From an uncultured Candidatus Bathyarchaeia archaeon (GTDB lineage: Archaea > Thermoproteota > Bathyarchaeia > 40CM-2-53-6): a stretch of 64,000 nucleotides of DNA. The DNA is taken from the NCBI GenBank assembly GCA_964559555.1, contig CAZLHM010000002.1, forward strand, positions 12,238-76,237, written 5' to 3'. This document shows positions 8,794 to 59,430 of this stretch, in pieces. The stretch's first letter is position 1; the number at the start of each line of letters is the position of its first letter. The position numbers and the translations under genes were made by a program. The notes beneath the pieces are model-generated. The model was not told the origin of the DNA, made no database searches, and saw only the letters and a list, made by a program, of their open reading frames with translations.

Positions 8794-9354
8794 TTGCAGA
8801 ATATTGAACATATGTTCAAAAAATTAGAATTCATCACTCCGACGCTCATGTCAGTCTTGGAGCTCTTCCTGTCTGATCCCATGCGAGAGCACCATCAGAG
8901 GGAGGTGGCAAGAAGCGCCAAGGTGAGCGTGGGCTCTGCGAACAGGATACTCAAGCTACTGGCTGATCTGGATATGCTTGCCGGACAAAGGAGGGGCAGG
9001 ATGGTGTTCTACAAGCTGAACGCTGGGGACCCGGTCGTCAGGCAGTTCAAGGCGCTGCTGAATGTCTACTCTTTGAAGCCCTTGCTCCAAGCGGCAAGGC
9101 ACCATTCCAGAAGGATACTCCTGTTCGGAAGGTCAGCCCAAGGATCCGATGTGAAGGAAAGCGACATAGACCTCTTCGTTCTCACTTCGGACAAGGGGCC
9201 AGTCAGGAGCGAGATCAGCGGATCCAACAGGAAAAGCGAGAGGAAGATTGCTCCTGTAATCGTTGACGCGAACGAATTTGTCAGGCTCAAGAGAAACGAC
9301 AGGGCTCTCTATGAGAACATCGAAAGGGGGATCACACTGTGGCAGGCAGAATGA
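8794..9354 (+). CDS. winged-HTH fused to minimal nucleotidyltransferase (MNT) domain
   Basis: LLFGRSAQGSDVKESDIDLFVL = GSx(n)DxD Pol-beta-type nucleotidyltransferase motif. N-terminal wHTH (RILKLLADLDMLAGQRRGRMVFYKL). Confidence 0.7.
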   Translation: MQNIEHMFKKLEFITPTLMSVLELFLSDPMREHHQREVARSAKVSVGSANRILKLLADLDMLAGQRRGRMVFYKLNAGDPVVRQFKALLNVYSLKPLLQAARHHSRRILLFGRSAQGSDVKESDIDLFVLTSDKGPVRSEISGSNRKSERKIAPVIVDANEFVRLKRNDRALYENIERGITLWQAE

Positions 9355-14157: not shown

Positions 14158-15614
14158 TTCACAAACCTACCGAATCCGGGCCCTACCTGAAGGTTATCAT
14201 CTGACATCACGACCTTTCCCCTGAGCAGCGTCATGCTCGGCCATCCCTTGCCCTTCATGTTCTCGAACAGAGTGAAGTCGCCGTATGAACGCAACCAATC
14301 GGTGGTGATCTTGCCCTCTCTATCTTGGTCTATAATGGCTAGGTCTGCGTCGGAGCCGACACTGATCGTTCCCTTCTCCGGGAACAAGCCAACTATCTTA
14401 GCTGGGTTCGTGGAGACCAGCTCAGCCAACCTCTCGAGCGACAGGCCTCTCCTTCGGAATCCTTCCCAAAACATCGTGATCAGCATGGTCTGACTGCCTG
14501 TGCTGCCGGAGCCAGTGTACCATATGTTCGAAGCTGGGTCTCCGCCTGAGGATCCATCTCCCCAAACCAACTTCTCATACTTGCTGCTGACCACGTGATC
14601 TGTACCTATCGAATCAATGCAGCCATCCACTATTCCTGCCCACAGTGCCTCTCTGTCCGACTCGTGCCGTAGAGGTGGGTTCAGCTTGCCGAGATAGCCT
14701 GCCCGAGCCGGATCAATCATTAGATATTGCGGGCAGACCTCAACAGTCAGTCTGGCTCCATCTCTTCTTGCGGCCACGACTTGCTCGAGACCTTCCTTCG
14801 ATGTCAAGTGGACAATGTGAATTCGTGACCCCACAATCCTCGACAGAAACGAGTATCTTTGCACATGTTCGGCTTCAAGGAATCCAGGCAGGGTTTCGCT
14901 CCACGCCTCAGGGTCAGTTCTCCCGGATGCCTTCACGCGTTCGGCAAACAGTCTGGAGATCTCAGTGTTTTCGCAGTGAATCAGCAGAACGGCTTTGTTA
15001 GTCTTCGCGACGTTCTCCAATGCCCGGAAAGCTAGGCGATCATCGTAGGACACCGGGAGCGCCATTCGTCGAGCCCATCTTGCTCCCATCGGATGATCTG
15101 CCACGTTCTTCAAGTTCCCATGATACTTGAAGGCAGAAACACCGAGCTTCTCAACGTAGTCAGGTATCTCTTCGGCGTGTTGCATCGAGTTGAGGGTGAA
15201 GATGAAGAGGAAATCGCAGCTCGAGTTCTGCTCCGCTGCTGTCCTACCCGATTCGAAGGCATCAAACCAAGACACGACATCAGCGGGGTCTGTATCCTCT
15301 TTGAAAGGTTGGCCCATCCTAGGGGCTCGGACTATGCCACCGATAGTTGTGACGCCACCAAGCAGGGCGCCAGGTGTCTCCGTTCTGAAGTCGTCGCCTA
15401 ACGCATGTTTTCCTCCGGGATGTGTGTGAATATCTATGGCTCCGGGAAGAACGAGTTTTCCCTTGAGATCTATCACATCGCTGGCGGTGGGCAGATGCGC
15501 GTCCTTCGCAACTGCTGTTATCTTGCCTTCTTCAATACCAACCCCGCCATGAACTACGCCAAAGGGAGTTACGAGTTCTCCATTCTTCAGAACAAGGTCG
15601 ATCAGTTGAGGCAT
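14148..15614 (-). CDS. cyclic amidohydrolase (hydantoinase/dihydropyrimidinase/allantoinase-like)
   Basis: N-terminal LPGAIDIHTHPGG (DxHxH) and the length are typical of D-hydantoinase/dihydropyrimidinase. Overlaps the downstream amidohydrolase gene by 10 nt. Confidence 0.7.
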   Translation of the reverse strand: MPQLIDLVLKNGELVTPFGVVHGGVGIEEGKITAVAKDAHLPTASDVIDLKGKLVLPGAIDIHTHPGGKHALGDDFRTETPGALLGGVTTIGGIVRAPRMGQPFKEDTDPADVVSWFDAFESGRTAAEQNSSCDFLFIFTLNSMQHAEEIPDYVEKLGVSAFKYHGNLKNVADHPMGARWARRMALPVSYDDRLAFRALENVAKTNKAVLLIHCENTEISRLFAERVKASGRTDPEAWSETLPGFLEAEHVQRYSFLSRIVGSRIHIVHLTSKEGLEQVVAARRDGARLTVEVCPQYLMIDPARAGYLGKLNPPLRHESDREALWAGIVDGCIDSIGTDHVVSSKYEKLVWGDGSSGGDPASNIWYTGSGSTGSQTMLITMFWEGFRRRGLSLERLAELVSTNPAKIVGLFPEKGTISVGSDADLAIIDQDREGKITTDWLRSYGDFTLFENMKGKGWPSMTLLRGKVVMSDDNLQVGPGFGRFVKCL

Positions 15615-15760: not shown

Positions 15761-16237
15761 TTAGCTCGACTGGATCTCTCTCAACTTCTGACTTGCCTTG
15801 AGGACTGCGTTAGTCGCGGCATAGTAGGTGCCGCACCTGCATAGGTTTCCCGCCAGAGCCTCCTGTACGTCTTCGCGGCTCGGCTTAGGTTTCTCTTTCA
15901 GCAGTGCGTAGGCGGACAGGATCATGCCAGGCGTGCAGTAGCCGCAATGGGCGGCGTCCTCTTCGATGAACGCCTCCTGAATCGGGTGAAGCTTGTCATC
16001 CTCCACAAGCCCTTCAATCGTGAGAACATCAGATCCGTCTACCTCTGCAGTGAACACCAAGCATGAATTCACCGCTCTCCCGTCCAAGAGAACCGTGCAC
16101 GCACCACAGTCTCCTGTCCTGCAGACATCTTTGCTTCCAGTGAGTCCTAGTCTCGTTCTAAGGGTGTCAAGCAGAACCTCGTTCGGTGGCACATCTAAGG
16201 AGATCGAATCGCCATTGACGCTCATCTGGACGTTCAT
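15761..16237 (-). CDS. [2Fe-2S] small subunit of xanthine-dehydrogenase-family molybdenum hydroxylase
   Basis: CRTGDCGACTV and CGYCTPG cysteine motifs. Start moved to the internal MNVQMSVNG Met, which lies 1 nt after the upstream subunit stop. Confidence 0.8.
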   Translation of the reverse strand: MNVQMSVNGDSISLDVPPNEVLLDTLRTRLGLTGSKDVCRTGDCGACTVLLDGRAVNSCLVFTAEVDGSDVLTIEGLVEDDKLHPIQEAFIEEDAAHCGYCTPGMILSAYALLKEKPKPSREDVQEALAGNLCRCGTYYAATNAVLKASQKLREIQSS

Positions 16238-16238
16238 G

Positions 16239-17111
16239 TCAACCACCGCGAGCTCTCTCAAGCGCTCGGGCGAAAGCAGACCTGACAAGCGCTTTCACCG
16301 CGCTCTTTCTGTATTCTGCTGTGGCTCTCACATCAGTTACGGGGACGGCTTCGTCCGAAGCCATTGAAGCCACCGAGTCAAGAAGGGCTGCACTAGGTTC
16401 CTTTCCACTCAACATCTTCTCAGCTTGAAGCGCTCTCATGGGCATGGGAGCGACGCTGCCGAGAGCTATTCGCCCTTCAGAGATCTTGGATCCCGAGATC
16501 TTTAGCAGGACAGCCGCAGAAGCAACGGATATGTCCTCTCCGTTCGTTCGACCGAGTTTCTCGAATGATGAGCCGCCCTCTTGAGGGCGGAATGCAACTT
16601 CCTTCAGCACCTCAGCCTTTTCTAGCGCTGTCTTTCCCGGACCTAGAAAGAAATCCTTCAAGGGGATTGTCCTGCCCGTTCCTTGCCGGATTGTCTCAAC
16701 TGAAGCGTTCAACACGAGAAGAGGGGGAGCTGAGTCGGCCGCAGGACTTGCGTTGCATAGGTTTCCTCCGATTGTAGCTCGATTCCTTATCTGGACTGAT
16801 CCGATCTGTGAGAGAGCCTCATGGAGGCAAGGTGCTCTTGTGCAAACCAACTCTGATCTCTGTGCGTCGATGATCTTGGTCAGAGCCCCGATTCTAACTA
16901 ATCCGTCCTTGATCGTTACGTAGCTCAGTTCCTTTCCAAGGTTTCTCAAGGAGACGACGTTCGCAGGTCTGAATCCCTTCAGTCTCGCTGCTGGAATGAA
17001 ATCCGTGCCCCCCGCGATAAGACTGGGCGAATCAAGTCTTCCTAGTAGGTTCAGCAATTCTGGAATCGTGTCTGGAGCGTAGTAGTCGAACGCTGGTACG
17101 GTGGCTCTCAT
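16239..17111 (-). CDS. FAD-binding medium subunit of molybdenum hydroxylase (CoxM/XdhB-like)
   Basis: LIAGGTDFIP motif. About 290 aa. Confidence 0.8.
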   Translation of the reverse strand: MRATVPAFDYYAPDTIPELLNLLGRLDSPSLIAGGTDFIPAARLKGFRPANVVSLRNLGKELSYVTIKDGLVRIGALTKIIDAQRSELVCTRAPCLHEALSQIGSVQIRNRATIGGNLCNASPAADSAPPLLVLNASVETIRQGTGRTIPLKDFFLGPGKTALEKAEVLKEVAFRPQEGGSSFEKLGRTNGEDISVASAAVLLKISGSKISEGRIALGSVAPMPMRALQAEKMLSGKEPSAALLDSVASMASDEAVPVTDVRATAEYRKSAVKALVRSAFARALERARGG

Positions 17112-17217: not shown

Positions 17218-19503
17218 TTGTCTCGAGTTGAAGCAGTCCAGAAAGTCACAGGTCGACTCACATTCACGGCAGACATGCAACTTTCAGGTATGCTTTATGC
17301 GGCAATTCTTCGAAGCGACAGACCCCACGCGAGAGTTAGGTCGATTGATGCTTCAGACGCTCTCAACCTTACCGGAGTCAAGAACGTAGTTACCTACGAA
17401 GATGCGCCGAACACACGATACAGTCCAATTTTCAACGCGCCATACCCCAAAGCAGACATGGTACCGAGAGACAAGTCGATAATGCGAAGAGAGGTTTGCT
17501 ATGTGGGCGAACCCGTGGCGGCGGTCGCAGCTACAAGCGTGGAGACGGCAGAGGAAGCCGTTAGCAAGATATGCGTCGAGTATGAGGATCTGCCCTACGT
17601 ATTGGATCCTCTTAAGGCCATGGAACCAGGAGCTCCAAAGGTCAGGACTGAACTGCACTACAATGTCGCAGAGGCATGGGGAGCCAAAGACGGAAACCCG
17701 ATGACAATCAGCACCGGGGACATCGAAAAAGGCTTCAAGATGGCCGATGAGGTCTTCGTAGACGAATACCAGACGCAGAGACAGAACCAAGTGCCGTTCG
17801 AACCGCACTGCTGCGTGTCATACTGGGACGAGAAAGGAAAGCTGAACGTGTGGTCTTCAACACAGAGCATTTTCCTTCTTAGAGAGAGGCTCTCAGAAGC
17901 GCTCGCCGTTCCCGTATCGAAGATAAACGTGCACAACTCCTACCTAGGCGGCTCTTTCGGCTCCAAACTGCAGATGAGCGAGGTTGAGCCAATCTGCGCT
18001 CTCCTGTCTAGGAAATCCAAGAAGGCGGTCAAGCTTGTTCTGAAGAGGGACGAGGTATTCGTCACCACGTCCAGACACGATGTCCGCATGACGCTCAGGA
18101 CTGGAGTGAAGAGGGACGGAACCATAACAGGTAGGCACTGCAAGTACGTGCTGAACACTGGCGCATATGCGACTCATGGTCCAAGCGTGGCAATTGTCGG
18201 CGGCCTCTACTTTGACTCAGCCTACAATGCTCCAAACCGTTTGTTCGAGGCCTATGCTGTCTACACCAATACATATTCCCCAGGGGCAATGAGAGGCTAT
18301 GGCGGCATCCAAGCTAGTTTCGGCATCGAGAGTCAGATGGACGATATCGCACATAAGATGGGATTCGACCCGATCGAGTTCAGGTTGAAGAACTCATTCA
18401 AGCTGGGTGACGTGAACCCGCGGACAGGCTACGTGGTGAGATCTTGGGGCCTGGAGGAGGCAGCAAGAAGCGCGGCGAAACGTTTCGGTTGGGACAAGCC
18501 ACCGCAGCAATCCTCTGACCCCAATAGGAGAAGAGGCAGAGGTATGGCCTTCCAAACCATCCGAGGTTCCGGCACAGGCGCCAAGACCACAACCGAACGA
18601 ATAATTGAGCACGGCGGAGCCACAGTCAAGTTCAACGAAGATGGAAGATTCACGGTCGTGACCGCAGCCATCGATATGGGCTGTGGTCAGCACACGGTGT
18701 ACAGGAACATTGCTGCAGACACGCTGGGTGTAGACGCGGACATGATAGATGTCCAGACAGGCGACACTGACACCACCGTATTCGAGGGGCCTATCCATGC
18801 AAGCCGCGGTACATACGTCGTCGGAAGCATAGTGAAAGCCGTCTGTGAGAGGATCAAGGCGCAGGTTCTCGAAGCCGCCTCCACGATGGTTGAAAGGAAC
18901 CCTCAGACCTTGGAGATCTCAGGCAAAGAGATCCGGTCAAGAGAGGATCCCAAGCTGAAGATGACGCTCTCAGAATTGGGTCTCTATGTCAGATTCCACT
19001 TGAACAAGAGCTTGGTCGTGTCCCTAGCGGACGAACCTCCCGACAATCCGCCTCCGTTCGGAGCGCATTTCGCTGAGGTTGAAGTTGATGTTCTTACGGG
19101 GCGAGTGTTTGTGACGAGATATGTGGCGGCACAAGATGTGGGCAAGATCATCTACGGGCCAGGAGCCAAAGGTCAGATTTACGGCGCGATTGCCCAAGGC
19201 ATTGGACTCACTCTCATGGAGGAAGTCAAGTTCGACTCTAGGGGGCAGGTAGTCAATTCGAACTTGACGGACTACAAGATCCCATCCATCGCAGATATGC
19301 CCGAGGCGGAAGCCATACTAGTCGAGACCACTGAACCAAGCGCGGTGGGAGCCAAGAGCGTAAGCGAAGCGTCACTCCATCCAGTTGCTCCAGTGATCGC
19401 CAACGCGCTGAAGGACGCTTTGGGAATAAGATTCAGGTCGCTGCCAATTACGCCAGAGAAGATCTTGAAAGCGATGCATCAAGGCGTGAAGAACTACATT
19501 TGA
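17218..19503 (+). CDS. molybdopterin-binding large subunit, xanthine dehydrogenase/aldehyde oxidase family
   Basis: 761 aa. a/b-hammerhead and MoCo-binding layout. No CODH-type AYRCSFR loop seen. Divergent from the small and medium subunit genes. Confidence 0.8.
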   Translation: MSRVEAVQKVTGRLTFTADMQLSGMLYAAILRSDRPHARVRSIDASDALNLTGVKNVVTYEDAPNTRYSPIFNAPYPKADMVPRDKSIMRREVCYVGEPVAAVAATSVETAEEAVSKICVEYEDLPYVLDPLKAMEPGAPKVRTELHYNVAEAWGAKDGNPMTISTGDIEKGFKMADEVFVDEYQTQRQNQVPFEPHCCVSYWDEKGKLNVWSSTQSIFLLRERLSEALAVPVSKINVHNSYLGGSFGSKLQMSEVEPICALLSRKSKKAVKLVLKRDEVFVTTSRHDVRMTLRTGVKRDGTITGRHCKYVLNTGAYATHGPSVAIVGGLYFDSAYNAPNRLFEAYAVYTNTYSPGAMRGYGGIQASFGIESQMDDIAHKMGFDPIEFRLKNSFKLGDVNPRTGYVVRSWGLEEAARSAAKRFGWDKPPQQSSDPNRRRGRGMAFQTIRGSGTGAKTTTERIIEHGGATVKFNEDGRFTVVTAAIDMGCGQHTVYRNIAADTLGVDADMIDVQTGDTDTTVFEGPIHASRGTYVVGSIVKAVCERIKAQVLEAASTMVERNPQTLEISGKEIRSREDPKLKMTLSELGLYVRFHLNKSLVVSLADEPPDNPPPFGAHFAEVEVDVLTGRVFVTRYVAAQDVGKIIYGPGAKGQIYGAIAQGIGLTLMEEVKFDSRGQVVNSNLTDYKIPSIADMPEAEAILVETTEPSAVGAKSVSEASLHPVAPVIANALKDALGIRFRSLPITPEKILKAMHQGVKNYI

Positions 19504-19681: not shown

Positions 19682-22384
19682 TTGGAGAAGAGCACCGTCA
19701 AACCCGATCAGGTGGGTCTGCGGTTATCATTCAAGTACGGCACCGCACAGTTCCAAGGTATCGAACGTCGTGAGGTAAGAAAGGAACCATTCCCCCGAAC
19801 TCGAAAGATGCGAGACCTCTACTTCGAGACGAAGTCCTCCGCCAGCGTTGAATTCCCTTATTGGTACACGAGACGATGGAACCAACTCGAAGGGGAGATC
19901 CCGATCATACGAAGGGCAGAAGCTCTTCGACACGCCTTCTCGCATCTGACCCCTACGATATTTCCCGGCGAACTCTTGGTCATGGGAAGGACATTGTACC
20001 TGAGGGGATCCTACCCGATGCCATGGGTCTCCCAGAGTTTCATTCTGGAGACCGGGAAACGATACGAGGAAGCGAAGCAACGCGGACTTGCTGGCGAAGA
20101 TGTGGTGAAGGTGGCGAAAGGAGGAGGCAACGTCACCCAAGCCATAGGCAACGTGATCTCAGTTGCGGGAAAATTCGGATTGAGGAAGGAAGAGTACCCC
20201 ATACTCAAAGAGGTTACGACCTCATGGGACGGGAAGTCAGTCGAGGACCTCTCGCTGAAGTACGAAAGGATGGTGCCAAACTACGAGACCAAGGAAGCCA
20301 TCATGCGCAGTCTCGTGTGCATGTATGATTCCGGTTATACTCTACCGCAAGGGAGAGAGGTCATCAGCTACTATCATCCGCTCCAATCAGGCATCGATGG
20401 CATGATCCAGTACTGCCATGGACAGATCGAACGGGTGGCGGGGGATCCTGGTACCGATGGAGTCAACGGCATGGATAGGCTGTACTTCTACAGGGCGGCG
20501 GCTACTGTCCTTGAAGGGATCAAGACATGGGTTCTCAACTACGCGAGTGAGGCAAGGCGACTAGCGAGCACAGAGACGGACCTCGACCAGAAGAACGAGT
20601 ATGAGGAGATCGCAAGTACACTCGAGTGGGTCTCGTCAAAGCAGCCTAGGATTTTCCGTGAGGCCCTCCAGCTTGCCTGGGTCTTCCATCTCGCAGTTCT
20701 CGCGGAAGACAACTTCTCAGGCCTTGCTCCAGGACGGCTGGGGCAGATTCTGTATCCTTGGTGGAAGCAGGACATGGAGAGTGGGTTACTCGACAGAAAA
20801 AAGACTCTGGAACTGCTCGAATGTATTCGAATGAAATTCACTGAGATTGATCTGTTCGGTCCAAAGATGGTGATAGAGGGAATCCAGTCAGGGAGCACAT
20901 TCAACAACGTAAGCCTAGGCGGATTAACGAGAGAAGGCGAGAGTGCAGCAAACGAACTTGAGATGCTTATGATCGAAGCTGGAATGACTTGTGAGACTCC
21001 TCAGCCAACCATGACGATACTCTATGACGAAAGGCTTCCAGAGGAGTATCTGCTCAAGGCTGTCGAGTGCAACAAGACAGGCACTGGGTACCCAGCATGG
21101 GTCAATAACAACGTAGCCATGGAATTCCTCCTCAAGAACTATGGCCCCGAAGGCATGACACTGGACGATGCAAGAGCTGTGGCAATAGGTGGCTGTCTAC
21201 AGACTGCAGCCTGCGCATGGGCTGAGCTCAAGCTGAACGGAAAGAAGTACGTGATCCCACGTGGAGGAGCAGCTCCAGCCACAGACGTAGGAGTCCACTT
21301 TCTCAACCTTCCGAAAGTGCTAGAGCTAGTGCTCTTTGACGGACTGGACCAGAGAACGGGTCAAAGAGTGCTGCCGTCTCACGGATCAAAGCTCGAGACC
21401 TACGGCGAGCTCTGGGAGACCTACAAGAAATACTTCAGAGAGGTCGTAGGCATTCTCATTCGATGCAACAACGTTCAACACGATGTCTGGAGGAAGGTCA
21501 CGCCCTCGGTCGTGAACTCCATGCTGAAGCCCGACTGTCTCGAGAAGGGAATGCAGATCGGAATGATGGGTTCTCGATACAATGCGAACTTCAGCGTCAA
21601 CATCTGTGGTGGCATCAACCTAGTGAATTCTCTCGCATCGCTGAAGTTCAATGTGTACGACAACAAGAAGATCACGCTTGAAGAGCTGAAGGAAGCACTT
21701 CGACACAACTTCGGGTTCAAGAAAGCTGAAGAGGTCGGCTCCTACTCGCTGATGGACCAAGTCAGACTCTCCCACAGTTGGGACAGGGTTCACCACCTGT
21801 GCATGAACGCACCGAAATATGGAAACGATGAGCCATATGCCGATGACATCTTGAGGGAATGGGAGGAATTCTACTGCTCTGTTGTGCGCGAATACAAGTC
21901 ACTATTCGCCAAGCCATTGTACGCGCTTCAGCTATCAGTATCCACTCATGGGCCCATGGGTGCGGTGAACATAGCGACTCCTGATGGGCGTCTGCATGGC
22001 ACTACGTTGGCGGACGCATCGGTTTCCGCCTATCCTGGCACAGACCTGAATGGCCCATATGCCTTGTTCAATTCCGCGACTTGCTTCGATCACTCCAACT
22101 CCCAGTGCACACAGATGAACCTCAAGATACACCCATCAGCGATCAAGGGAAGGGAAGGCAGCAGGAAACTCCTGGAACTGATTCGCTCCTATATGCGGAA
22201 GGGTGGCTTCCACATTCAGTTCAACATAGTCGACTCCAACATGCTAAGAGAGGCTCAAGCGCATCCTGAGAAGTATCGGGACCTGCTCGTCAGAGTTGCA
22301 GGTTTCACTCACTACTGGGTGGAGCTTCCGAAGCCAATACAAGATGAGATCATCGCCAGAACCGAGTACGAGGAGCTGACCTAG
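19682..22384 (+). CDS. glycyl radical enzyme catalytic subunit, HPAD-like architecture (variant Cys loop GCLQ)
   Basis: 900 aa. C-terminal glycyl-radical motif LVRVAGFTHY (RVxG[FY]). Cys loop VAIGGCLQTAAC near residue 505. Followed by a small Cys-rich subunit and an activase. Confidence 0.75.
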   Translation: MEKSTVKPDQVGLRLSFKYGTAQFQGIERREVRKEPFPRTRKMRDLYFETKSSASVEFPYWYTRRWNQLEGEIPIIRRAEALRHAFSHLTPTIFPGELLVMGRTLYLRGSYPMPWVSQSFILETGKRYEEAKQRGLAGEDVVKVAKGGGNVTQAIGNVISVAGKFGLRKEEYPILKEVTTSWDGKSVEDLSLKYERMVPNYETKEAIMRSLVCMYDSGYTLPQGREVISYYHPLQSGIDGMIQYCHGQIERVAGDPGTDGVNGMDRLYFYRAAATVLEGIKTWVLNYASEARRLASTETDLDQKNEYEEIASTLEWVSSKQPRIFREALQLAWVFHLAVLAEDNFSGLAPGRLGQILYPWWKQDMESGLLDRKKTLELLECIRMKFTEIDLFGPKMVIEGIQSGSTFNNVSLGGLTREGESAANELEMLMIEAGMTCETPQPTMTILYDERLPEEYLLKAVECNKTGTGYPAWVNNNVAMEFLLKNYGPEGMTLDDARAVAIGGCLQTAACAWAELKLNGKKYVIPRGGAAPATDVGVHFLNLPKVLELVLFDGLDQRTGQRVLPSHGSKLETYGELWETYKKYFREVVGILIRCNNVQHDVWRKVTPSVVNSMLKPDCLEKGMQIGMMGSRYNANFSVNICGGINLVNSLASLKFNVYDNKKITLEELKEALRHNFGFKKAEEVGSYSLMDQVRLSHSWDRVHHLCMNAPKYGNDEPYADDILREWEEFYCSVVREYKSLFAKPLYALQLSVSTHGPMGAVNIATPDGRLHGTTLADASVSAYPGTDLNGPYALFNSATCFDHSNSQCTQMNLKIHPSAIKGREGSRKLLELIRSYMRKGGFHIQFNIVDSNMLREAQAHPEKYRDLLVRVAGFTHYWVELPKPIQDEIIARTEYEELT

Positions 22385-22669
22385 ATGCTTGCGCAGGTCA
22401 TCGTTAGGCGATGTGCCGACTGCGAGCACTTCATTCCCGTCGACGTTTTCAAGGGACTCTGCCAAGTGTCAAAGAAGACAGTACTGACTGATGATCCGCC
22501 CTGCAAGGACTGCACACCTGCCAAGAAGTGCAAGTTCTGCAAGCACTACTCGCCAAGAGACGAGCATCTCGGCATGTGCAAGGCGAAGGAGATCACCTAC
22601 CCGGAACTAGCGACCAAAACCTGCGAAATGTTCGGGTGGAGTTCTGACCTACCAACCGGCCGGAACTAA
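22385..22669 (+). CDS. Cys-rich small subunit of glycyl radical enzyme (HpdC/BssC-like, putative Fe-S)
   Basis: 94 aa with 9 Cys and 2 His in CxxC-type spacings (CADCEH, CKDCTPAKKCKFCKH). Start codon overlaps the large-subunit stop. Confidence 0.55.
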   Translation: MLAQVIVRRCADCEHFIPVDVFKGLCQVSKKTVLTDDPPCKDCTPAKKCKFCKHYSPRDEHLGMCKAKEITYPELATKTCEMFGWSSDLPTGRN

Positions 22670-22758
22670 CCCATGCCTTGCTATCCGTCTCCTCTTCGAC
22701 AAAGTACGATCGTGTATATCAACACAATTCCATCGCCTGAACGGAGGGCAGACTTCAT

Positions 22759-23730
22759 GTGCAAAGCGTAGCAATGTCGTCGACGCAGAAACCAGAATCC
22801 TTGAAGGGACTGATATTTGACGTGCAGGGCTTCTCGGTTCACGATGGGCCGGGTTGCAGGACTCTAGTTTTCATGAAGGGATGCCCTCTAACCTGCAAAT
22901 GGTGCTGCAACCCCGAGGGCCAAGAACAGAAACTGCAACTGATGTACAGTCAGAGAAGATGCAGAAAGGAGACGTACGGCTGCGTAACGGCCTGTCCCGA
23001 GATGGCGATATCAGTCAATGAGGCTGGCGAATATCCCACCTTTGATCGGTCAAAATGCACGAGATGTCGGCACTTTGGCTGTGCCAATGGCTGCTATAAC
23101 GGAGCGCTCAGGGTAGTCGGGCGCTACGTCACTGTTCAAGAACTGATGAATACTGTTCGACGTGATCGAGCTTATTGGGGTAGCGGAGGTGGGGTGACAT
23201 TGGGCGGAGGGGAACCCCTCGCGCAAGCAGAGTTCACTCTCGCACTTCTGAAAGAGCTTCACGAGGCATACGTTCACACCGCGATTGAAACGTGTGCTCA
23301 GGTTCCTTGGAACAACCTGATGCGAGCGCTCGACTACTTGGACTGGATCTTCGTGGACATAAAACACATGGACACTGACAGGCACAGGCAAGAAACAGGC
23401 GTCGGGAATGAACTGATCTTGGAGAACATCAAGCGTATTTCCTTGTCGGAGAAATCACCGCGAATGATCCCTAGGATGCCCATAGTGCCAGGATTCAACG
23501 ATTCCGACAGCAATGTTCTGGCCACAGCAGCCTTTCTCAACAAGATAGGGAAGAATGAAGTGAACCTTCTCCCGTTCCATCGCCTAGGTGTGTCCAAGTA
23601 CGAGCAGCTTGGTCTGGACTATGCCTATAAGGACACCAACCCACCGACTGCCGAGAAGATCGACCACATCGCAGGGCTCTTCGAGAAGAGGGGTATCAAA
23701 TGCTACGCTGGAAGCGATACCCCGTTCTAG
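22759..23730 (+). CDS. glycyl-radical enzyme activating enzyme (radical SAM, with extra ferredoxin-like clusters)
   Basis: FDVQGFSVHDGPGCRTLVFMKGCPLTCKWCCNPE is the classic GRE-AE N-terminus including CxxxCxxC. Extra Cys cluster CRKETYGCVTACPE...CTRCRHFGCANGC. 323 aa. Confidence 0.85.
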   Translation: MQSVAMSSTQKPESLKGLIFDVQGFSVHDGPGCRTLVFMKGCPLTCKWCCNPEGQEQKLQLMYSQRRCRKETYGCVTACPEMAISVNEAGEYPTFDRSKCTRCRHFGCANGCYNGALRVVGRYVTVQELMNTVRRDRAYWGSGGGVTLGGGEPLAQAEFTLALLKELHEAYVHTAIETCAQVPWNNLMRALDYLDWIFVDIKHMDTDRHRQETGVGNELILENIKRISLSEKSPRMIPRMPIVPGFNDSDSNVLATAAFLNKIGKNEVNLLPFHRLGVSKYEQLGLDYAYKDTNPPTAEKIDHIAGLFEKRGIKCYAGSDTPF

Positions 23731-23749: not shown

Positions 23750-24580
23750 CTAGATCGATGAAGATTCTGACCAGAGTTTTTCGAATTCATTGCACAGCGC
23801 TCGGATCAAATCGGCGCTGTTTGACCATAGAGCCACAGATTGGTCGGCATACTTCGGAGGAGGAGCCATCTTGACGATGAGATGCTTCCTGTCAGCGATG
23901 AAGTACCTCAGCATGGTCAGCGTGTTAGAATGATTACGGATCTCTAGGCTCTTAGGTATCTCAGAACGCACACTGATTGGGACTTCGCGAATTTCGGTGA
24001 GTATCTTCACCTCGATTCCACTTTTCTTCGCCTTGTCTCCCATGGCGTCTATAAGGCCGAGGTTACGCGTGAGGAGAAACCCATCGGAAGATGTGACCTG
24101 CAAGATTTCTTTTCTCGATTGGCCGATCAGCCTTTCCTGTTGCCTGTAGACGTGTCTTCCAACAAGCAGCCTCGCAAAGATCTGCTGCTGACCGGTACTT
24201 GCTAGAGGGCGGTCTGCCATCTGCTCCTGATCCTGCACACTCGCGCGAGACGTGTAGCTCCTAATCCGGTCCAGCTGTTCTTCCTGCCTCGCGATGAGTA
24301 TATCCACGGCTTCGTCAAGTACGACAGACTTGACTTTTGTCACGTCTCCGAGAATGAGTTCAATCAGTCCGAAATCCTTCAGATGTTTCACAATCCGGTA
24401 GGCGTTGGCACGATGTATTCCTGATTTCTTGGCGAGATCCGGAATCGTAGAGGGGCCCTCGTGGAGTAGAATCTCATACACACTTCTCTGATTCTTGGTC
24501 AATCCAAGTCTTACTAGGAGCTCTGTAGCGCGAGTGTCATCAGAGCCGAGGTGTCCTAGGGATGGATGCAAGTCTGACAA
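23750..24580 (-). CDS. TrmB-like transcriptional regulator
   Basis: N-terminal wHTH (NQRSVYEILLHEGPSTIPDLAKKSGIHRANAYRIVKHLKDFGLI) plus a C-terminal ligand-binding-like region. Convergent with the GRE operon. Confidence 0.55.
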   Translation of the reverse strand: MSDLHPSLGHLGSDDTRATELLVRLGLTKNQRSVYEILLHEGPSTIPDLAKKSGIHRANAYRIVKHLKDFGLIELILGDVTKVKSVVLDEAVDILIARQEEQLDRIRSYTSRASVQDQEQMADRPLASTGQQQIFARLLVGRHVYRQQERLIGQSRKEILQVTSSDGFLLTRNLGLIDAMGDKAKKSGIEVKILTEIREVPISVRSEIPKSLEIRNHSNTLTMLRYFIADRKHLIVKMAPPPKYADQSVALWSNSADLIRALCNEFEKLWSESSSI

Positions 24581-24688: not shown

Positions 24689-25357
24689 TTGAGAATCCGC
24701 CAAGCATCTTTATACATCTTGGAGGCAGTTGCGGCTGTCGTACGAAGAATCGTGTACTACGGGGAGACGTTGTGCGTGAAGCCTAGTGCGAAGAGCAGAT
24801 CCGCCATCGTCGTCATCAACATGCTGAAGGACATGATTGAAAGAGGGAAGCCTTTCCCAATGCCACCGGAATTCAAGCAAACCGTTGTACCCAAGATCGC
24901 TCTACTGATACAAAATGCAAGGAAGGCGGGAATTCCTGTGATCTATGTCTGCGATGCGCATAGAGCAGACGACCCAGAGTTCTCGGACTTCCCCGCAGGA
25001 GCAGAACATTGTGTCAAGGGATCTGGTCGGGAGCAGGTGATCGATGAGGTGAAGCCTCTTTCAGGCGACTATATTGTTGAGAAGAGGCGTTTCAGCGGGT
25101 TCTTTGGAACAGATCTGGATATTCTGCTGTCGGAGCTGGGCGTGGACACACTATTCTTCGCTGGAAGGCCGACCAATGTGTGCGTGTTGTATACGGTTGC
25201 TGATGCATTTCAGAGAGGATACTCGGTAGTCGCCGTTGAGGACTGCCTCTACAGCAGAACGAAAGAGTATCACCAGTCCGGTCTAGATGCGATGATCTTC
25301 GCCCGCAAGACCACGCTTGATGGTTTCCTCAGGGAATACAGAGGTGCTGAAAAATGA
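24689..25357 (+). CDS. isochorismatase-family cysteine hydrolase
   Basis: IVVINMLKD...VIYVCDAH pattern (D...K...C triad context). 222 aa. Confidence 0.65.
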   Translation: MRIRQASLYILEAVAAVVRRIVYYGETLCVKPSAKSRSAIVVINMLKDMIERGKPFPMPPEFKQTVVPKIALLIQNARKAGIPVIYVCDAHRADDPEFSDFPAGAEHCVKGSGREQVIDEVKPLSGDYIVEKRRFSGFFGTDLDILLSELGVDTLFFAGRPTNVCVLYTVADAFQRGYSVVAVEDCLYSRTKEYHQSGLDAMIFARKTTLDGFLREYRGAEK

Positions 25358-25884
25358 GACAGGCTCTGTTGGTCATTGATTTGAACAAGGATCACATTTA
25401 CCGGAACAAGCCCTTCAACGCGGACCGACTAAGGACGAAGATGCCGAACATTGTCAAGGCAATAGAATACGCAAGACATCACGAGATGCCTGTAGTTCAT
25501 GTGACATGTACCCATACGGACAAAGACGCGATATTCTCGACGGGTTGGTGTAGACCTCACGCAATTGAGGGGACTCAGGGCGCGGACATCGTAGACGAGG
25601 TCAAGCCAAAGAGTGAAGACTACGTGGTTCACAAGAGGCGTTTAAGCGGCTTCTATGGAACCGACCTAGACCTCTACCTCAGAGAGCTAGGGATAGAGAG
25701 CGTCATGCTGGTCGGGGGACAGACGCACATGTCCATCCGATACACAGCCGTAGATGCATATCAACTCAGGTATAGACCAGTCATCCTACGAGACTGCGTG
25801 GACAGCTGCTCACAAGAATTCAACGATAGGACTCTGAACGAGTTGTTCTTCTGCAGGATATCAAGCTTGGGCGAAATCACATAA
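25354..25884 (+). CDS. isochorismatase-family cysteine hydrolase (paralog)
   Basis: ALLVIDLNKD...VVHVTCTH pattern. Overlaps the upstream paralog by 4 nt. Confidence 0.65.
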   Translation: MRQALLVIDLNKDHIYRNKPFNADRLRTKMPNIVKAIEYARHHEMPVVHVTCTHTDKDAIFSTGWCRPHAIEGTQGADIVDEVKPKSEDYVVHKRRLSGFYGTDLDLYLRELGIESVMLVGGQTHMSIRYTAVDAYQLRYRPVILRDCVDSCSQEFNDRTLNELFFCRISSLGEIT

Positions 25885-25918
25885 CCCTGAAACGTGGTCT
25901 TGGGAGGCAGACTAAGAC

Positions 25919-26428
25919 TTGACCGACGAACAATCGTCGATATTCGTTGACGGCAGATTCATCGGAGGAAGTTTCAGCGCCACCCGCAGGGTCAGCAACG
26001 CCCCCCATGGAGGCAATAGACTTCACGGACACACGTACGAAATCTCCGTAAGGTTGACACGGAAAAAGGCATCAGAGCAGAAACTGATTTTTCCATTCGA
26101 GGAACTTGCGGCGATTATGAAAAGCGTTTGTGAAGAGCTGAACAACAAGGTGTTGCTCGCCTCAGGAGGCGAGAATGTCTACAAAGAGAACTCCATCACA
26201 ATCGAGTACGTGTCCGCCGACAACAAGAGGTATCTTCTCCCAGTTGAGGACGTTAAACTCCTGCCACTGGAGGAAGTCACCATAGAGGCTCTCGCATTCT
26301 GGATCGGAGCACAGACCGCAACTAGGCTCAAGGAATATCGCGATTTCTCCGGCAACATCGCACAGATGGAGATTACGCTCTACGAGGGTCGGCAAAGAGG
26401 TTGTACAATAGCTGTTCCAATGACATGA
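25919..26428 (+). CDS. 6-pyruvoyl-tetrahydropterin synthase (PTPS/QueD)-like protein
   Basis: The LHGHTYEI motif resembles the PTPS HGHxY zinc-binding signature. Confidence 0.45.
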   Translation: MTDEQSSIFVDGRFIGGSFSATRRVSNAPHGGNRLHGHTYEISVRLTRKKASEQKLIFPFEELAAIMKSVCEELNNKVLLASGGENVYKENSITIEYVSADNKRYLLPVEDVKLLPLEEVTIEALAFWIGAQTATRLKEYRDFSGNIAQMEITLYEGRQRGCTIAVPMT

Positions 26429-26530
26429 AGCGCCTTCTGGGCGAGTTCATGCTTGTTCCCGCGAGGATGCAAGATGTCCCAAGGCACAGCGTAGCAATTG
26501 ATGAATAGAACACACTGACAATCGTCTACG

Positions 26531-27376
26531 ATGATTTCGATGGCGTTCAGAGTGGCCGTGATCCAACCGGTAAGAGAGAAGGACGAAGATGTCGATAACG
26601 CCTTGGAGTATCTCGATCGAGAGGCTGGAGATGGAGTGCGGCTCATTTGCTTCCCGGAGGGCTATCCCGGCCCATGGCAAGAGGCACTCCTTGGCGTATC
26701 GCCGGCGAAGAAGCTAGGCTACCGTAGCCTGGACGAGTATGCTTCTGTGAGAGCGTTCTCTCGAGAAGCGAAGAACAAGGGTGTACACATCGCTTTCGGC
26801 TTGACGGAGGTGCACGACAACGACTACTTCAACAGCTACTTAGTTGTCGGTCCTTCAGGCGAGCTGGTCCACAAACATAGGAAGACAACGCCTGCCGCGT
26901 TCGAGGTTGCGGCCGACGGAAGACCTGTGAATAGGGGGAATGAGCTCGAAGTGTTCGAGATCGAAGGAGTCAAGGCTGGAATACTGACATGCTGGGAGGC
27001 CCTGTTCCCCGAGCTTCCACGTGTCCTTGCGCTCAAAGGAGCTGAGATCCTCCTCTTTCCAACTGGAGGGAAGATCTACGAGCTCTTAGATACTTGGCGA
27101 ACGGTCATCTGGGCTAGAGCGATAGACAACCTAGCCTATGTTGTCATCAGCGTGAACCTCTACGGTAAGGAGAAGGGCCTCTCTATGATTGCAGGACCAG
27201 AAGATATCTTGGTTGAGAACGAGGGCGAAGGTGTCATTACAGCTGACCTAGACCTCGAGAGGTTACGTTGGATCAGAGAAACGGACGAGGAGCTGACGAT
27301 ACCGAAGAAGTACAAGTGCGTTCCGGGGTTGTTCAAGTACAGAAGGCCGGAACTCTACCGTCCGCTTGCAGAGTAA
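26531..27376 (+). CDS. carbon-nitrogen hydrolase (nitrilase superfamily; N-carbamoyl-amide/beta-ureidopropionase-like)
   Basis: RVAVIQ...ICFPEGY (Glu) and ILTCWEALFPE (Cys) are elements of the nitrilase-superfamily E-K-C triad. Paralog of 44357..45169. Confidence 0.75.
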   Translation: MISMAFRVAVIQPVREKDEDVDNALEYLDREAGDGVRLICFPEGYPGPWQEALLGVSPAKKLGYRSLDEYASVRAFSREAKNKGVHIAFGLTEVHDNDYFNSYLVVGPSGELVHKHRKTTPAAFEVAADGRPVNRGNELEVFEIEGVKAGILTCWEALFPELPRVLALKGAEILLFPTGGKIYELLDTWRTVIWARAIDNLAYVVISVNLYGKEKGLSMIAGPEDILVENEGEGVITADLDLERLRWIRETDEELTIPKKYKCVPGLFKYRRPELYRPLAE

Positions 27377-39930: not shown

Positions 39931-40007
39931 CGATTGCACCTCGACATTCTCCAGTTGAGTAATAGTTCTTAGGACACCAACAGGGCCAGTCGTGCAAGTG
40001 GCAGACT

Positions 40008-40979: not shown

Positions 40980-41131
40980 CCTTTTACCTCGGTGGTTCTC
41001 ATGCACCATCAGAAGTCGTATTAATGTTCTGTGTCCGATAGTCACGGCTTGATAGTGCGAGGATACGAATGCCAAGTCAGCTGAGTGTCCACGCAAGTCG
41101 TTTTATCGCCGATCGCTCTCTGAGTGAGAAC

Positions 41132-46409: not shown

Positions 46410-46434
46410 CTCAAATTCCTCCTTTCTATGCAAC

Positions 46435-49019: not shown

Positions 49020-49028
49020 GTCCGGATC

Positions 49029-54052: not shown

Positions 54053-54265
54053 CGGAATTTTCCCGGTCTGGTAACGCCCGTCTCAATGTTGATAAAGCTT
54101 TGCACAGAAGAACCTGATCTTTCGAATCTAGTGCGACGATCACAATACGCGCTTGTTGTTCTCATGTGATTCAATGTAATTCGTACTGCTGACGCCTGAA
54201 GCTTCGAACCAAAGGCCTATTTATCGTGCTGGCGTCCCTATCGGCAGTCTTCGGATAGTGTCCCA

Positions 54266-55495: not shown

Positions 55496-55509
55496 ACGGA
55501 CTTCGAGAC

Positions 55510-56463: not shown

Positions 56464-56645
56464 GTGATCTCCTCATACTCGCCGAGGCGAATTGCCGCCG
56501 CTGAATCGCTAATAAGAATTTCTACGCTTACCCACCGTTTGTCGAGTCTGCCCCATCGTCTACGGAAGAACGCAGTATCCGGTTGAACGCCCCCGCCAAA
56601 GACTAAATATTCCAGCCAAGAAACGCCGGGGGGGATCTGATCTCG

Positions 56646-57488: not shown

Positions 57489-57545
57489 ACAACTCATCCT
57501 AAGCTGTTTCACCTGAATCACTGTCCAGAGAAAACATGAGGGATC

Positions 57546-59429: not shown

Positions 59430-59430
59430 G

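Follow-up and report, generated by a model that had tools for sequence, protein, structure and literature searches.

4-Hydroxyphenylacetate decarboxylase (HPAD) is an oxygen-sensitive radical enzyme with which bacteria produce p-cresol. In this glycyl radical enzyme (GRE), Glu505 of the Cys loop has been proposed to donate a proton to the Cys thiolate rather than to act as an eliminase-type general base (PMC13450708). Glu505 and Glu637, the residue that deprotonates the phenol, are both proposed to be essential (PMC13450708 section 5.4; PMC9248008), and unpublished work cited in PMC9248008 indicates that the Glu that deprotonates the phenol is indispensable in the C. scatologenes enzyme (CsHPAD); the need for the two residues is not confirmed by published mutagenesis (PMC13450708). 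Leu400 faces the substrate ring (PMC6181972), and Gly532 is also counted among the active-site residues (PMC4979209). Indoleacetate decarboxylase (IAD) has Leu616 in place of Glu637 and Ala396 in place of Leu400, which fits a heteroaromatic ring and shows that substrate specificity is set in part at both positions (PMC6181972). PhdB, a toluene-forming phenylacetate decarboxylase (PAD), naturally carries a Cys-loop Gln (Q484), and little or no activity is left when this residue is mutated (Q484E, Q484A, Q484L; PMC7079210); PAD has no Glu637 equivalent (PMC13232127).

In this work, we analysed a 64,000-nucleotide stretch of DNA (the window) assigned to Candidatus Bathyarchaeia, in which an initial annotation, made from the sequence alone, had described a three-gene system built like HPAD.

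Results

The three-gene locus

The three annotated open reading frames were recovered (Table 1), and profile matches bore out their description as a large (alpha) subunit, a small (gamma) Fe-S subunit and an activase with extra clusters. The alpha stop and gamma start abut (..ACC TAG ATG..) instead of overlapping as initially described, and the activase has an alternative in-frame ATG at 22774 that would yield 318 aa. Alpha matched PF02901 (456 bits) and PF01228 (95 bits), scored above the equivalog threshold of the HPAD large-subunit model NF033715 (1362 bits, cut-off 1150) and below that of the IAD model NF033718 (744 bits, cut-off 1100), and shares 50% identity with crystallised C. scatologenes HPAD (2Y8N_A, E = 1.6e-292).

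Gamma exceeded the cut-offs of NF033716 (68 bits, cut-off 50) and PF18671 (33 bits, cut-off 25), fell just under that of PF18524 (25.9 against 28.1 bits), and matched 2Y8N_B with E = 5e-6. All eight [4Fe-4S] ligand positions, compared column by column across 80 small subunits, are present (C10, C13, C26, C40 and C49, C52, C65, C80), the first being Cys where CsHPAD has His; the annotated count of nine Cys was right, and His residues number three (H15, H54, H61) rather than two. For the activase, the HPAD-activase model NF033717 was the best match, just below threshold (398.5 bits, cut-off 420), and TIGR02494 was exceeded (335 bits, cut-off 174). Its domains (PF04055, PF13353, Fer4_6/7) and a ferredoxin-like insert, with CX3CX2C at residues 42-49 and more Cys at 68-112, agree with the extra clusters foreseen.

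The host is very probably archaeal, as annotated: the locus shows 77% identity and conserved synteny with the MAG "Candidatus Bathyarchaeia archaeon SPRUCE 612" (528-kb contig), and TrmB regulators and a CTP-dependent riboflavin kinase of archaeal type are likewise encoded in the window. All this is best explained by a complete, putatively functional HPAD-family glycyl radical system of a Bathyarchaeia-type archaeon.

Table 1. Features of the glycyl radical enzyme locus and its surroundings (window positions).
Feature	Position	Strand	Remarks
TRZ/ATZ/SsnA-type deaminase-like amidohydrolase	12742..14157	-	below equivalog cut-offs
Hydantoinase/dihydropyrimidinase/allantoinase-like cyclic amidase	14148..15614	-	below equivalog cut-offs
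XDH-family [2Fe-2S] subunit	15761..16288	-	divergently transcribed
XDH-family FAD subunit	16239..17111	-	divergently transcribed
XDH-family molybdopterin subunit	17218..19503	+	PF01315/PF02738/PF20256
Large (alpha) subunit, HPAD-family GRE, Q/N variant	19682..22384	+	900 aa, TTG start
Gln402	20885..20887	+	replaces ring-facing Leu400 of HPAD; Q in 6/6 clade members, L in 114/114 canonical relatives
Cys loop G503-G-C505-L-Q507-T	21188..21205	+	C505/Q507 aligned on C503/E505 of 2Y8N_A (GGC503LE505S)
Asp535	21284..21286	+	at HPAD position Gly532; D in 6/6 clade, S in 114/114 canonical
Asn640	21599..21601	+	replaces phenol-deprotonating Glu637 of HPAD; N in 6/6 clade, E in 114/114 canonical
Gly874, RVAGF glycyl-radical motif	22301..22303	+	aligned to G873 of CsHPAD
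Small (gamma) Fe-S subunit	22385..22669	+	94 aa
Radical-SAM glycyl-radical activase	22759..23730	+	323 aa from GTG
TrmB-family transcriptional regulator	23750..24580	-	PF01978; convergent with activase
Downstream hydrolase block	24689..27376	+	two isochorismatase-family hydrolases, PTPS/QueD-like protein, CN-hydrolase
PTPS/QueD-like protein	25919..26428	+	in downstream hydrolase block
CN-hydrolase	26531..27376	+	in downstream hydrolase block

Active-site residues kept and replaced

The annotated RVAGF motif and a Cys near residue 505 were both found, Cys505 occupying the thiyl-radical position. The GGCLQ loop described initially was confirmed by alignment to 2Y8N_A, and a search through the whole alpha protein revealed no GCxE motif; Gln507 replaces HPAD Glu505 in 6/6 members of its clade, with Glu in 114/114 canonical relatives. 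The position equivalent to Glu637, singled out for checking, proved alignable, and its replacement by Asn640 had been missed. The loop change from which the initial annotation argued for altered chemistry is therefore real, and the strongest evidence had gone unnoticed, namely E637N, L400Q and Asp at 532 fixed throughout the clade. Gln507 and Asn640 occur together in 6/6 clade members and 0/114 canonical homologs (hereafter Q/N and E/E forms), and no mixed forms, part Q/N and part canonical, were seen across some 170 loci and 190 proteins. Clade-specific substitutions fall on 4 of the 10 published active-site positions, taken from the residue lists of PMC4979209 and PMC6181972 and placed by sequence alignment, where 0.32 would be expected (P = 1.6e-4), and the overall pattern greatly exceeds what chance would give.

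At the pocket end that handles the radical and the carboxylate, the HPAD residues are all kept (R223, S344, G345, F405, C503, H536 and G873), the carboxylate-holding and ring-stacking residues being R225, S346, G347, F407 and H539 in the numbering of the present alpha subunit; Asp535 lies four residues N-terminal of the conserved His539. Other nearby clade changes include I343F, V399I, C748L and I750L, position 343 being Phe in the clade, Ile in canonical relatives and Gln in CsHPAD, and further polar changes comprise G397E and 393K. About 25 clade-specific positions were counted besides the four active-site changes (relative to CsHPAD). Taken together, the substitutions predict a pocket that is more polar, not more hydrophobic. 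The Q/N clade is monophyletic, comprises only six 90%-identity clusters, and is nested inside the HPAD family among mostly bacterial sequences.

Gene neighbourhood

Neighbouring genes bore out the annotated placement of the GRE inside an N-heterocycle/amide catabolic island. Directly upstream, on the same strand, lies the XDH-family molybdopterin subunit, with a gap of 178 bp here, against 18 bp in the Bathyarchaeia locus of SPRUCE; this subunit scored 593 bits against XdhA (NF043082), below the cut-off of 780, and a search for a close solved relative found none. Its orthologs, at 73-80% identity, span four lineages and adjoin the GRE in loci L092, L009 and L094, and the subunit is co-inherited with the GRE. 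Both amidohydrolases are conserved in L009 and L092 (69-84% identity). It is in the Bathyarchaeia lineages that an XDH-like Mo hydroxylase and amidohydrolases accompany the Q/N clade. The molybdopterin subunit was found near 13/18 Q/N loci versus 3/101 canonical loci, the amidohydrolases near 12-13/18 versus 0-1/101, and XDH-like subunits plus amidohydrolases overall near 12-14/18 versus 0-3/101, the Q/N loci coming from no more than six or so lineages, of which four are related Bathyarchaeia; the association may partly reflect shared ancestry of the catabolic island, not a shared pathway. XDH-like genes are absent from loci P0012 and P0005 as far as their contigs reach.

In L092 (64%) and L095 (51%), TrmB orthologs adjoin the GRE operon, and the PTPS-like and CN-hydrolase genes recur beside the GRE in L094 and L096. 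Other Q/N lineages repeatedly carry UbiD, the PTPS-like gene and an ABC transporter of the Bmp/CUT2 type, and AOR and aminotransferase genes lie within the island.

Discussion

Because PhdB has an essential Cys-loop Gln and PAD has no Glu637 equivalent (PMC7079210, PMC13232127), a decarboxylase is still the best guess, and the initial argument that a GCLQ loop excludes a canonical decarboxylase does not hold; nor does the general-base role it gave to the Cys-loop Glu of HPAD, for which proton donation to the thiolate is proposed instead (PMC13450708). Its system type, Gln loop, archaeal host and island stand, and its inferred chemistry, Glu role and archaeal novelty are revised. With both glutamates of the catalytic site and a further two pocket residues exchanged, the enzyme probably decarboxylates an aromatic acid that differs from the HPAD substrate and is more polar. 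On balance, we lean towards a decarboxylase that is built on the HPAD scaffold, acts on a polar (hetero)arylacetate and does not take the Glu-dependent Kolbe route. The radical would be formed and relayed by means of the activase, Gly874 and Cys505; R225, S346, G347, F407 and H539 would bind the carboxylate of the substrate and pack against its ring as in HPAD; and an aryl- or heteroaryl-acetate would lose CO2 by a radical mechanism, leaving a methyl compound. The substrate would be other than 4-hydroxyphenylacetate, with hydrogen-bonding groups on its ring (e.g., N-heterocyclic or amino/oxo-substituted). The proton-coupled Kolbe route dependent on Glu637 and Glu505 would be closed to the Q/N enzyme, and its route would resemble the proposal for phenylacetate decarboxylase. 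In the Bathyarchaeia lineages, this reaction would probably constitute one step of heterocycle catabolism, along with an XDH-like Mo hydroxylase, a cyclic amidase and deaminases.

An ordinary HPAD, forming p-cresol from tyrosine-derived 4-hydroxyphenylacetate and tolerating the Gln and Asn substitutions, is unlikely. Alpha and gamma do exceed the NCBIfam HPAD equivalog cut-offs, with the activase just below, public pipelines use the HPAD name, His536, Ser344, Arg223 and Phe405 are retained, AOR and aminotransferase genes are at hand, published mutagenesis has not confirmed the necessity of Glu505 and Glu637 (PMC13450708), and 4-hydroxyphenylacetate is also decarboxylated by AAD and PAD, whose pockets are built differently (PMC13450708, PMC13232127). 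However, both glutamates, regarded as essential throughout the mechanistic literature, L400 and position 532 are replaced in every clade member and in 0/114 canonical relatives, CsHPAD is reported to have an absolute need for its phenol-deprotonating Glu (unpublished work cited in PMC9248008), and the gene context is wholly unlike that of canonical loci.

Retention of all the carboxylate-binding and ring-stacking residues makes it quite improbable that the enzyme gave up decarboxylation and now uses the scaffold for novel chemistry, for instance to break C-C or C-N bonds in the ring or side chain of a heterocycle; eliminase-type GREs also need the Cys-loop Glu that is absent here (PMC7079210), and at 50-67% alpha identity to HPADs the pocket geometry is probably preserved. 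Such a change would be in keeping with four remodelled positions, both acid/base residues among them, with new acidic residues (D535, E399) elsewhere in pocket segments, and with genes for a Mo hydroxylase and ring-opening amidases being tightly linked to the GRE. A phenylacetate decarboxylase analogue on the HPAD scaffold, yielding toluene or acting on another non-polar arylacetate, would share with PhdB its Cys-loop Gln and missing Glu637 equivalent (PMC7079210, PMC13232127), yet is very improbable given the more polar pocket (L400Q, 532D, E637N, G397E, 393K), the distant relationship to PhdB-type enzymes, and gene surroundings of the kind that break down N-heterocycles and amides rather than ferment aromatic amino acids. 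Finally, a decaying or dead remnant of an HPAD operon gained from bacteria by horizontal transfer, conceivable from the mostly bacterial surroundings of the clade and the lost catalytic Glu residues, is effectively refuted by strong purifying selection on alpha (pN 0.08-0.23 versus pS 0.74-0.87 against other clade members), by intact Gly, Cys, eight cluster ligands and activase motifs, and by the fixation of four identical substitutions in lineages that share as little as 64% identity.

In NCBI and JGI, the Q/N clade already carries the automatic name HPAD (MGA2461709.1), probably a mislabelling in public databases if, as the favoured polar (hetero)arylacetate decarboxylase implies, its substrate differs from 4-hydroxyphenylacetate.

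Among known systems, PhdB/PAD resembles the window enzyme in carrying Gln at the second position past the catalytic Cys and in lacking a Glu637 equivalent, and its proposed mechanism dispenses with phenol deprotonation (PMC7079210, PMC13232127, PMC13450708); it is, however, a distant GRE-superfamily relative with a hydrophobic pocket and no reported small subunit, small subunits being counted only in HPAD, BSS and MASS (PMC13450708). Other residues essential in PhdB are H327, W495 and Y691. IAD (NF033718), the sister family to HPAD, keeps the Cys-loop Glu (E502) and has no small subunit. Canonical E/E pairs, found in many Bacteroidales and Clostridia and, at database level, in Methanomicrobiales MAGs (L015, L020, L023), share 60-67% identity and the alpha-gamma-activase arrangement, so that the initial view of HpdC-like subunits as unknown among archaeal GREs no longer applies; they differ in retaining L400, E505 and E637, in Ser at 532, and in lacking the XDH-like/amidohydrolase neighbourhood. 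With HPAD itself (HpdBC/CsdBC and HpdA/CsdA; C. scatologenes, PDB 2Y8N/2YAJ), the window system shares the three-gene order, an alpha of about 900 aa, a gamma with two [4Fe-4S] sites, auxiliary cluster motifs in the activase, the radical Gly and Cys, and R223, S344, G345, F405 and H536; it departs from CsHPAD in E505Q, E637N, L400Q, G532D, the Cys as first gamma ligand and the archaeal host, and it lies in an XDH-like/amidohydrolase island, whereas HPAD lies with tyrosine-fermentation genes.

Results

A complete three-gene system of the HPAD family

Three co-directional ORFs encoding a glycyl radical enzyme (GRE) large subunit, a Cys-rich small subunit and a radical-SAM activase lie exactly where the initial annotation had placed them, with two corrections of detail: the large- and small-subunit genes abut (..ACC TAG ATG..) instead of overlapping at stop and start, and the small protein holds the 9 Cys described but 3 His, not 2. 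A TTG start of the large-subunit gene is supported by homology; the predicted N-terminus lines up with homologs of 903-910 aa, and the match to the model of 4-hydroxyphenylacetate decarboxylase (HPAD) begins at residue 12. The large subunit carries the RVAGF motif with G874, the glycine-radical feature of the GRE superfamily, and the thiyl Cys of the Cys loop (C505, aligned to C503 of 2Y8N_A, the large subunit of C. scatologenes HPAD, CsHPAD), while the CX3CX2C motif of the activase corresponds to C42-x3-C46-x2-C49.

Against the HPAD large-subunit equivalog NF033715 (NCBIfam, cut-off 1150) the window protein scored 1362 bits, and scores of 1235-1443 bits were obtained across all members of the Q/N clade, the six 90%-identity clusters to which it belongs and in which Glu505 and Glu637 of CsHPAD are replaced by Gln and Asn. 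The small subunit likewise exceeded the threshold of its HPAD counterpart, the small-subunit equivalog NF033716, and the best match of the activase was the HPAD activase NF033717 (398.5 bits, just under the cut-off of 420). The predicted fold of the large subunit is not in doubt, because it shares ~50% identity with 2Y8N_A, by far the closest solved structure (E = 1.6e-292); the sole PDB match of the small protein was the small chain, 2Y8N_B. The eight ligand positions of two predicted [4Fe-4S] clusters are kept in the window small subunit, the first being Cys, not His. At the N-terminal [4Fe-4S] site, this ligand is Cys in 14/14 Q/N small subunits, and His in CsHPAD and in 58/65 from canonical (E/E) relatives, those keeping both glutamates; two all-Cys clusters are therefore probable in the variant clade.

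Pyruvate formate-lyase (PFL) proper was rejected (TIGR01255, 74 bits, cut-off 994; NF007437, 325 bits, cut-off 1109; a GGCLQ loop without a CC pair), as were the GRE 1,2-eliminases, namely glycerol/propanediol dehydratase, CutC and HypD (CutC 332, HypD 404 and TIGR01774 422 bits, far under their cut-offs; no GCxE), and indoleacetate decarboxylase (IAD), whose cut-off lies far above the score obtained. Neither a second GCxE motif nor a misaligned Cys loop was found through the large subunit. Thus, none of the three findings named beforehand as speaking against the original reading was obtained, since the protein is not a PFL and has no GCxE elsewhere, and the 94-aa ORF has clear homologs and all eight cluster-ligand positions.

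Public gene calls often miss or shorten parts of the Q/N operon: the 96-aa small-subunit gene is uncalled in SPRUCE-type loci (L009-L011, 12734..13021) and in locus L008, only a 176-aa fragment of the activase is annotated in loci L001, L002 and L004, and in L001 the annotated large subunit starts at Met43 (858 aa). In NCBI/nr, two large subunits of the canonical HPAD family (P0162 and P0185, ~890 aa, with PF02901 and PF01228) go under the name 'MFS transporter', which looks like an annotation error.

Features of the window with coordinates
Feature	Coordinates	Strand	Model match or remark
HTH-fused CTP-dependent riboflavin kinase	153..842	+	PF01982
HTH-fused cytidylyltransferase-like protein	826..1539	-	
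AbiEi-like antitoxin and AbiEii nucleotidyltransferase toxin pair	7195..8762	+	type IV toxin-antitoxin
Nucleotidyltransferase-domain ORF	8794..9354		follows the AbiE pair
Sensor histidine kinase, 1070 aa	9478..12690	-	multiple PAS and GAF domains
GRE large subunit, 900 aa	19682..22384	+	PF02901 456 bits, PF01228 95 bits
Cys-rich small subunit, 94 aa	22385..22669	+	NF033716 68 bits (cut-off 50), PF18671
Radical-SAM activase, 323 aa, ferredoxin-like inserts	22759..23730 (alternative start 22774)	+	TIGR02494 335 bits (cut-off 174)
PTPS/QueD-like protein	25919..26428	+	weak match
Creatininase-family amidohydrolase and two creatinase/prolidase-like M24 proteins	38743..41096 and 45222..46490		
URO-D-family protein	43047..44201		
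Second CN-hydrolase	44357..45169		
ECF-type transporter module	46435..49550	-	CbiQ/EcfT protein, fused double ABC ATPase (577 aa), S-component (173 aa)
Families flanking the GRE in the SPRUCE contig	52427..63588		30-40 kb from the GRE

A clade-wide variant of the active site

Alignment with 2Y8N_A bore out the unusual Cys loop, with GGC503-L-E505 of the reference facing GGC505-L-Q507 of the window. Glu505, proposed to protonate the Cys503 thiolate in the Kolbe-type HPAD mechanism, thus reads Gln507, and Glu637, which together with His536 binds and deprotonates the para-hydroxyl of the substrate, reads Asn640; Ser344 and His536 (His539 in the window) are retained. Among the 120 best homologs drawn from a collection of 5.8 billion proteins, the seven diagnostic positions (S344, C503, L504, E505, H536, E637 and G873) read Ser-Cys-Leu-Glu-His-Glu-Gly in 114/120 and Ser-Cys-Leu-Gln-His-Asn-Gly in the other 6/120.

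The active-site residues of HPAD listed by Martins et al. (Arg223, Ser344, Gly345, Phe405, Cys503, Glu505, Gly532, His536 and Glu637; PMC4979209), together with the further, ring-facing Leu400 (PMC6181972), were mapped through an alignment that includes the CsHPAD sequence. R223, S344, G345, F405, C503, H536 and the radical Gly are unchanged in variant and canonical groups alike, and the changes L400->Q, E505->Q, 532->D and E637->N each occur in 6/6 variant and 0/114 canonical sequences; position 532 is Gly in CsHPAD, Ser in 114/114 canonical relatives and Asp in the variant. The variant large subunit has 29 clade-specific positions in total, and such changes fall on 4/10 published active-site positions against 0.32 expected (P = 1.6e-4). 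Neighbouring pocket segments display further clade-specific changes (I343F, S347A, G397E, V399I, N635S, C748L and I750L); at position 343 every canonical relative has Ile, CsHPAD has Gln343 and the variant has Phe, and C748L and I750L are the counterparts of the IAD pocket residues L730 and I732 (PMC13232127).

As read from these alignments, both proposed acid/base glutamates and two more pocket residues are replaced clade-wide; the new side chains are polar and non-acidic, or acidic but relocated. The radical and carboxylate end of the pocket would be conserved, and its ring-substituent end appears remodelled and more polar. A plain, p-cresol-forming HPAD, the identity to which the equivalog score points, is in our view unlikely, given that the Q/N clade lacks two defining catalytic features of that enzyme (Glu505 and Glu637).

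Mechanistic precedents and the predicted reaction

In the mechanism proposed for HPAD, the substrate gives up a carboxylate electron to the thiyl radical as Glu637 removes the phenol proton, and the Cys thiolate is next protonated by Glu505 (PMC13450708). In IAD the Cys-loop Glu is kept (E502), and Glu637 and Leu400 are changed to Leu and Ala, respectively, to fit indole (PMC6181972). The phenylacetate decarboxylase (PAD) PhdB naturally has a Gln in its Cys loop (Q484), which is essential; Q484E is inactive and Q484A/L nearly so, results taken to point to a different mechanism (PMC7079210). H327, W495 and Y691 are further essential residues of PhdB. An equivalent of Glu637 is likewise missing from PAD (PMC13232127). 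The window enzyme resembles PhdB in having Gln at Cys+2, the Q484 position (PMC7079210).

The initial annotation had taken the GCLQ loop as an argument against decarboxylase chemistry; this argument fails because of PhdB Q484 and the PAD precedent, and a decarboxylase working without the phenol-dependent Kolbe route would, by analogy, be the better inference. We lean towards an enzyme that would decarboxylate an aryl- or heteroaryl-acetate other than 4-hydroxyphenylacetate, with a ring that probably bears hydrogen-bonding nitrogen or oxygen functions, the reaction probably opening with abstraction of an H atom, or with an electron transfer that involves no phenol deprotonation, as has been proposed for PAD. 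A PAD-like, toluene-type activity would share the Cys-loop Gln of PhdB and appears quite improbable; the best NCBIfam matches of the large subunit are HPAD and IAD, not a PhdB family. Chemistry other than decarboxylation, as first suggested from the loop, is about equally improbable, and an eliminase in particular is unlikely because eliminase-type GREs require the Cys-loop Glu (PMC7079210), absent here.

Extent and maintenance of the Q/N clade

In a neighbour-joining tree rooted on CsHPAD, the six variant clusters are monophyletic and nested within the HPAD family, with a lowest pairwise identity of 64%. The clade is rare, comprising six 90%-identity clusters with 47 member sequences. One Q/N locus in 80 (1/80) was obtained in a one-genome-per-species scan (185,579 species), and 8 were found among the best 80 of 403 relatives in JGI metagenome contigs, all from already-known lineages; when the most divergent member was used as a protein query, the six clusters again ranked first, and scores then fell to canonical sequences. 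Neither an additional Q/N lineage nor a mixed form (E/N or Q/E) appeared in the species genomes, the JGI best 80 of 403 or the divergent-member search.

Large subunits of the clade show low pN (0.08-0.23) and pS of 0.74-0.87, with synonymous sites saturated, and the small subunit is likewise constrained. The HPAD-family alpha/gamma/activase system is complete and selectively maintained, with intact radical machinery and carboxylate- and ring-stacking residues; that it is a dead remnant, as the loss of both glutamates might suggest, has virtually no probability.

Host and archaeal distribution

Among named genomes, a Q/N enzyme occurs only in 'MAG: Candidatus Bathyarchaeia archaeon isolate SPRUCE 612' (528-kb contig), whose GRE shares 77% identity with that of the window and whose flanking genes have the same arrangement; identities are 74%, 69% and 54% for the Mo, Fe-S and FAD subunits, 69-71% for two amidohydrolases, 65% for the activase and 64% for the DUF1989 protein. 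The window also encodes TrmB regulators and a PF01982 riboflavin kinase, which we take to be an archaeal-type enzyme; the kinase and the adjoining cytidylyltransferase-like gene are useful markers of archaeal contig origin. An archaeal, Bathyarchaeia-type origin of the window is well supported by the SPRUCE 612 synteny, the riboflavin kinase and the TrmB regulators, and this assignment leaves aside the divergent branch of proteins P0012 and P0005. An archaeal GRE with an HpdC-like small subunit had been thought unprecedented, which does not hold, as Methanomicrobiales MAGs have canonical E/E versions with the gamma gene.

Gene neighbourhood

Directly upstream of the GRE, on the same strand, lies an XDH-family Mo subunit gene (gap of 178 bp; 18 bp in the SPRUCE locus), and divergent from it are its FAD and [2Fe-2S] partners, a hydantoinase-like cyclic amidase and a TRZ/ATZ/SsnA-like deaminase. 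Downstream of the operon are a TrmB regulator, two isochorismatase-family hydrolases, a PTPS/QueD-like protein and a CN-hydrolase, followed by a tungsten-type AOR, a DUF1989 protein and two more cog0402-type amidohydrolases. Mo-subunit orthologs (73-80% identity) accompany the GRE in four lineages, one of them rearranged. When every locus of 12 kb or more is considered, XDH subunits and such amidohydrolases are near 12-14/18 Q/N loci versus 0-3/101 canonical loci; with only about six lineages behind these 18 loci, the association is suggestive of a shared pathway, short of proof. Where a Q/N lineage shows no XDH genes, the genes beside the GRE encode a UbiD-family decarboxylase, a PTPS-like protein and a Bmp/CUT2-type ABC transporter; the transporter is homologous between two lineages. 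UbiD adjoins the GRE in three other lineages and was therefore sought in the window, where it is absent.

No neighbour reached an NCBIfam equivalog score (XdhA-like, hydantoinase-like, TRZ/ATZ/SsnA-like, RutB/BiuH-like, AguB-like and generic UbiD matches all fell under cut-off), so no specific pathway can be named, and a PDB search found no close characterised relative of the Mo subunit. Taken together, the predicted functions of the neighbours point to the breakdown of nitrogen heterocycles with amino or oxo substituents, or of base-like compounds that are imported.

The surrounding island contains several more C-N hydrolytic modules (creatininase, M24, CN-hydrolase and URO-D families; see table). 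The large sensor histidine kinase adjoins the amidohydrolase/XDH block, is also present at the edge of locus L001, and could sense the pathway substrate. The S-component of the ECF module gave sub-threshold matches only, to ECF_trnsprt and to the thiamine transporter Thia_YuaJ (21.6 bits, cut-off 25.8). A PTPS/QueD-like gene (weak, 46-50 bits) stands beside the Q/N GRE in three lineages, those of the window and of loci L094 (6681..7175) and L096 (459..968). In the window copy FSATRRV was read by eye at the position where QueD/PTPS proteins usually have their first zinc-binding His, and it may therefore be a non-canonical member. In an 85%-identical lineage (L092, 16261..18053), IS3/rve-type transposase genes directly follow two isochorismatase genes and occupy the place of the window PTPS-like and CN-hydrolase genes, the island being rearranged. 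The ADH_zinc, PNP_UDP_1 nucleoside phosphorylase, Metallophos-like, class-III aminotransferase, amino-acid permease and DUF1989 families that flank the GRE in the SPRUCE contig (L009, 14064..22326) sit at a distance in the window, which suggests one large, shuffled catabolic island common to both.

Discussion

A bolder proposal, which we put forward tentatively and consider somewhat doubtful, is that the Q/N clade would be the fifth kind of GRE decarboxylase, and the first to which a role in archaea is assigned: an alpha-gamma enzyme acting on an N-heteroaryl-acetate or similarly polar arylacetate without either catalytic glutamate, and feeding or following a Mo-hydroxylase/ring-amidase pathway for anaerobic heterocycle breakdown in peat and lake-sediment Bathyarchaeia. 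If so, it would be a natural E505Q/E637N 'mutant', and the HPAD scaffold would be able to run a non-Kolbe mechanism. Candidate substrates such as imidazole-4-acetate, pyrimidine- or purine-type acetates, thiamine-derived 4-methylthiazole-5-acetate and aminophenylacetates are speculation; the cues behind them, the thiamine-transporter match of the ECF S-component and a 'B6' match of the Bmp-type binding protein, are both sub-threshold, and neither is counted as evidence.

As the Q/N clade passes the curated HPAD equivalog threshold and receives the HPAD name in public genomes, attributing p-cresol production to Bathyarchaeia from metagenomes would probably be wrong. With all three genes in hand, the system is a well-defined archaeal GRE target, and experimental follow-up is worthwhile, the genes being complete and the predictions directly testable; a naturally conserved Q/N HPAD scaffold offers a direct comparative test of why GRE decarboxylases appear to differ in mechanism. 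Should the link to the Mo hydroxylase and amidases be functional, it would point to an undescribed anaerobic nitrogen-heterocycle route in one abundant group of sediment archaea.

A 2026 review states that all PFL-like GREs of characterised function are bacterial, and names archaeal clades as a gap (PMC13450708). Our literature search on GREs in Bathyarchaeia, GREs tied to purine/XDH clusters and heteroaryl-acetate GRE decarboxylases returned nothing on the Q/N clade. The GRE architecture and family are already known, and the Q/N sequences are already public, auto-named HPAD; what is new is a coherent active-site variant, archaeal and tied to a heterocycle-catabolic island, which keeps the gamma subunit of HPAD and converges on the Cys-loop Gln of PhdB.
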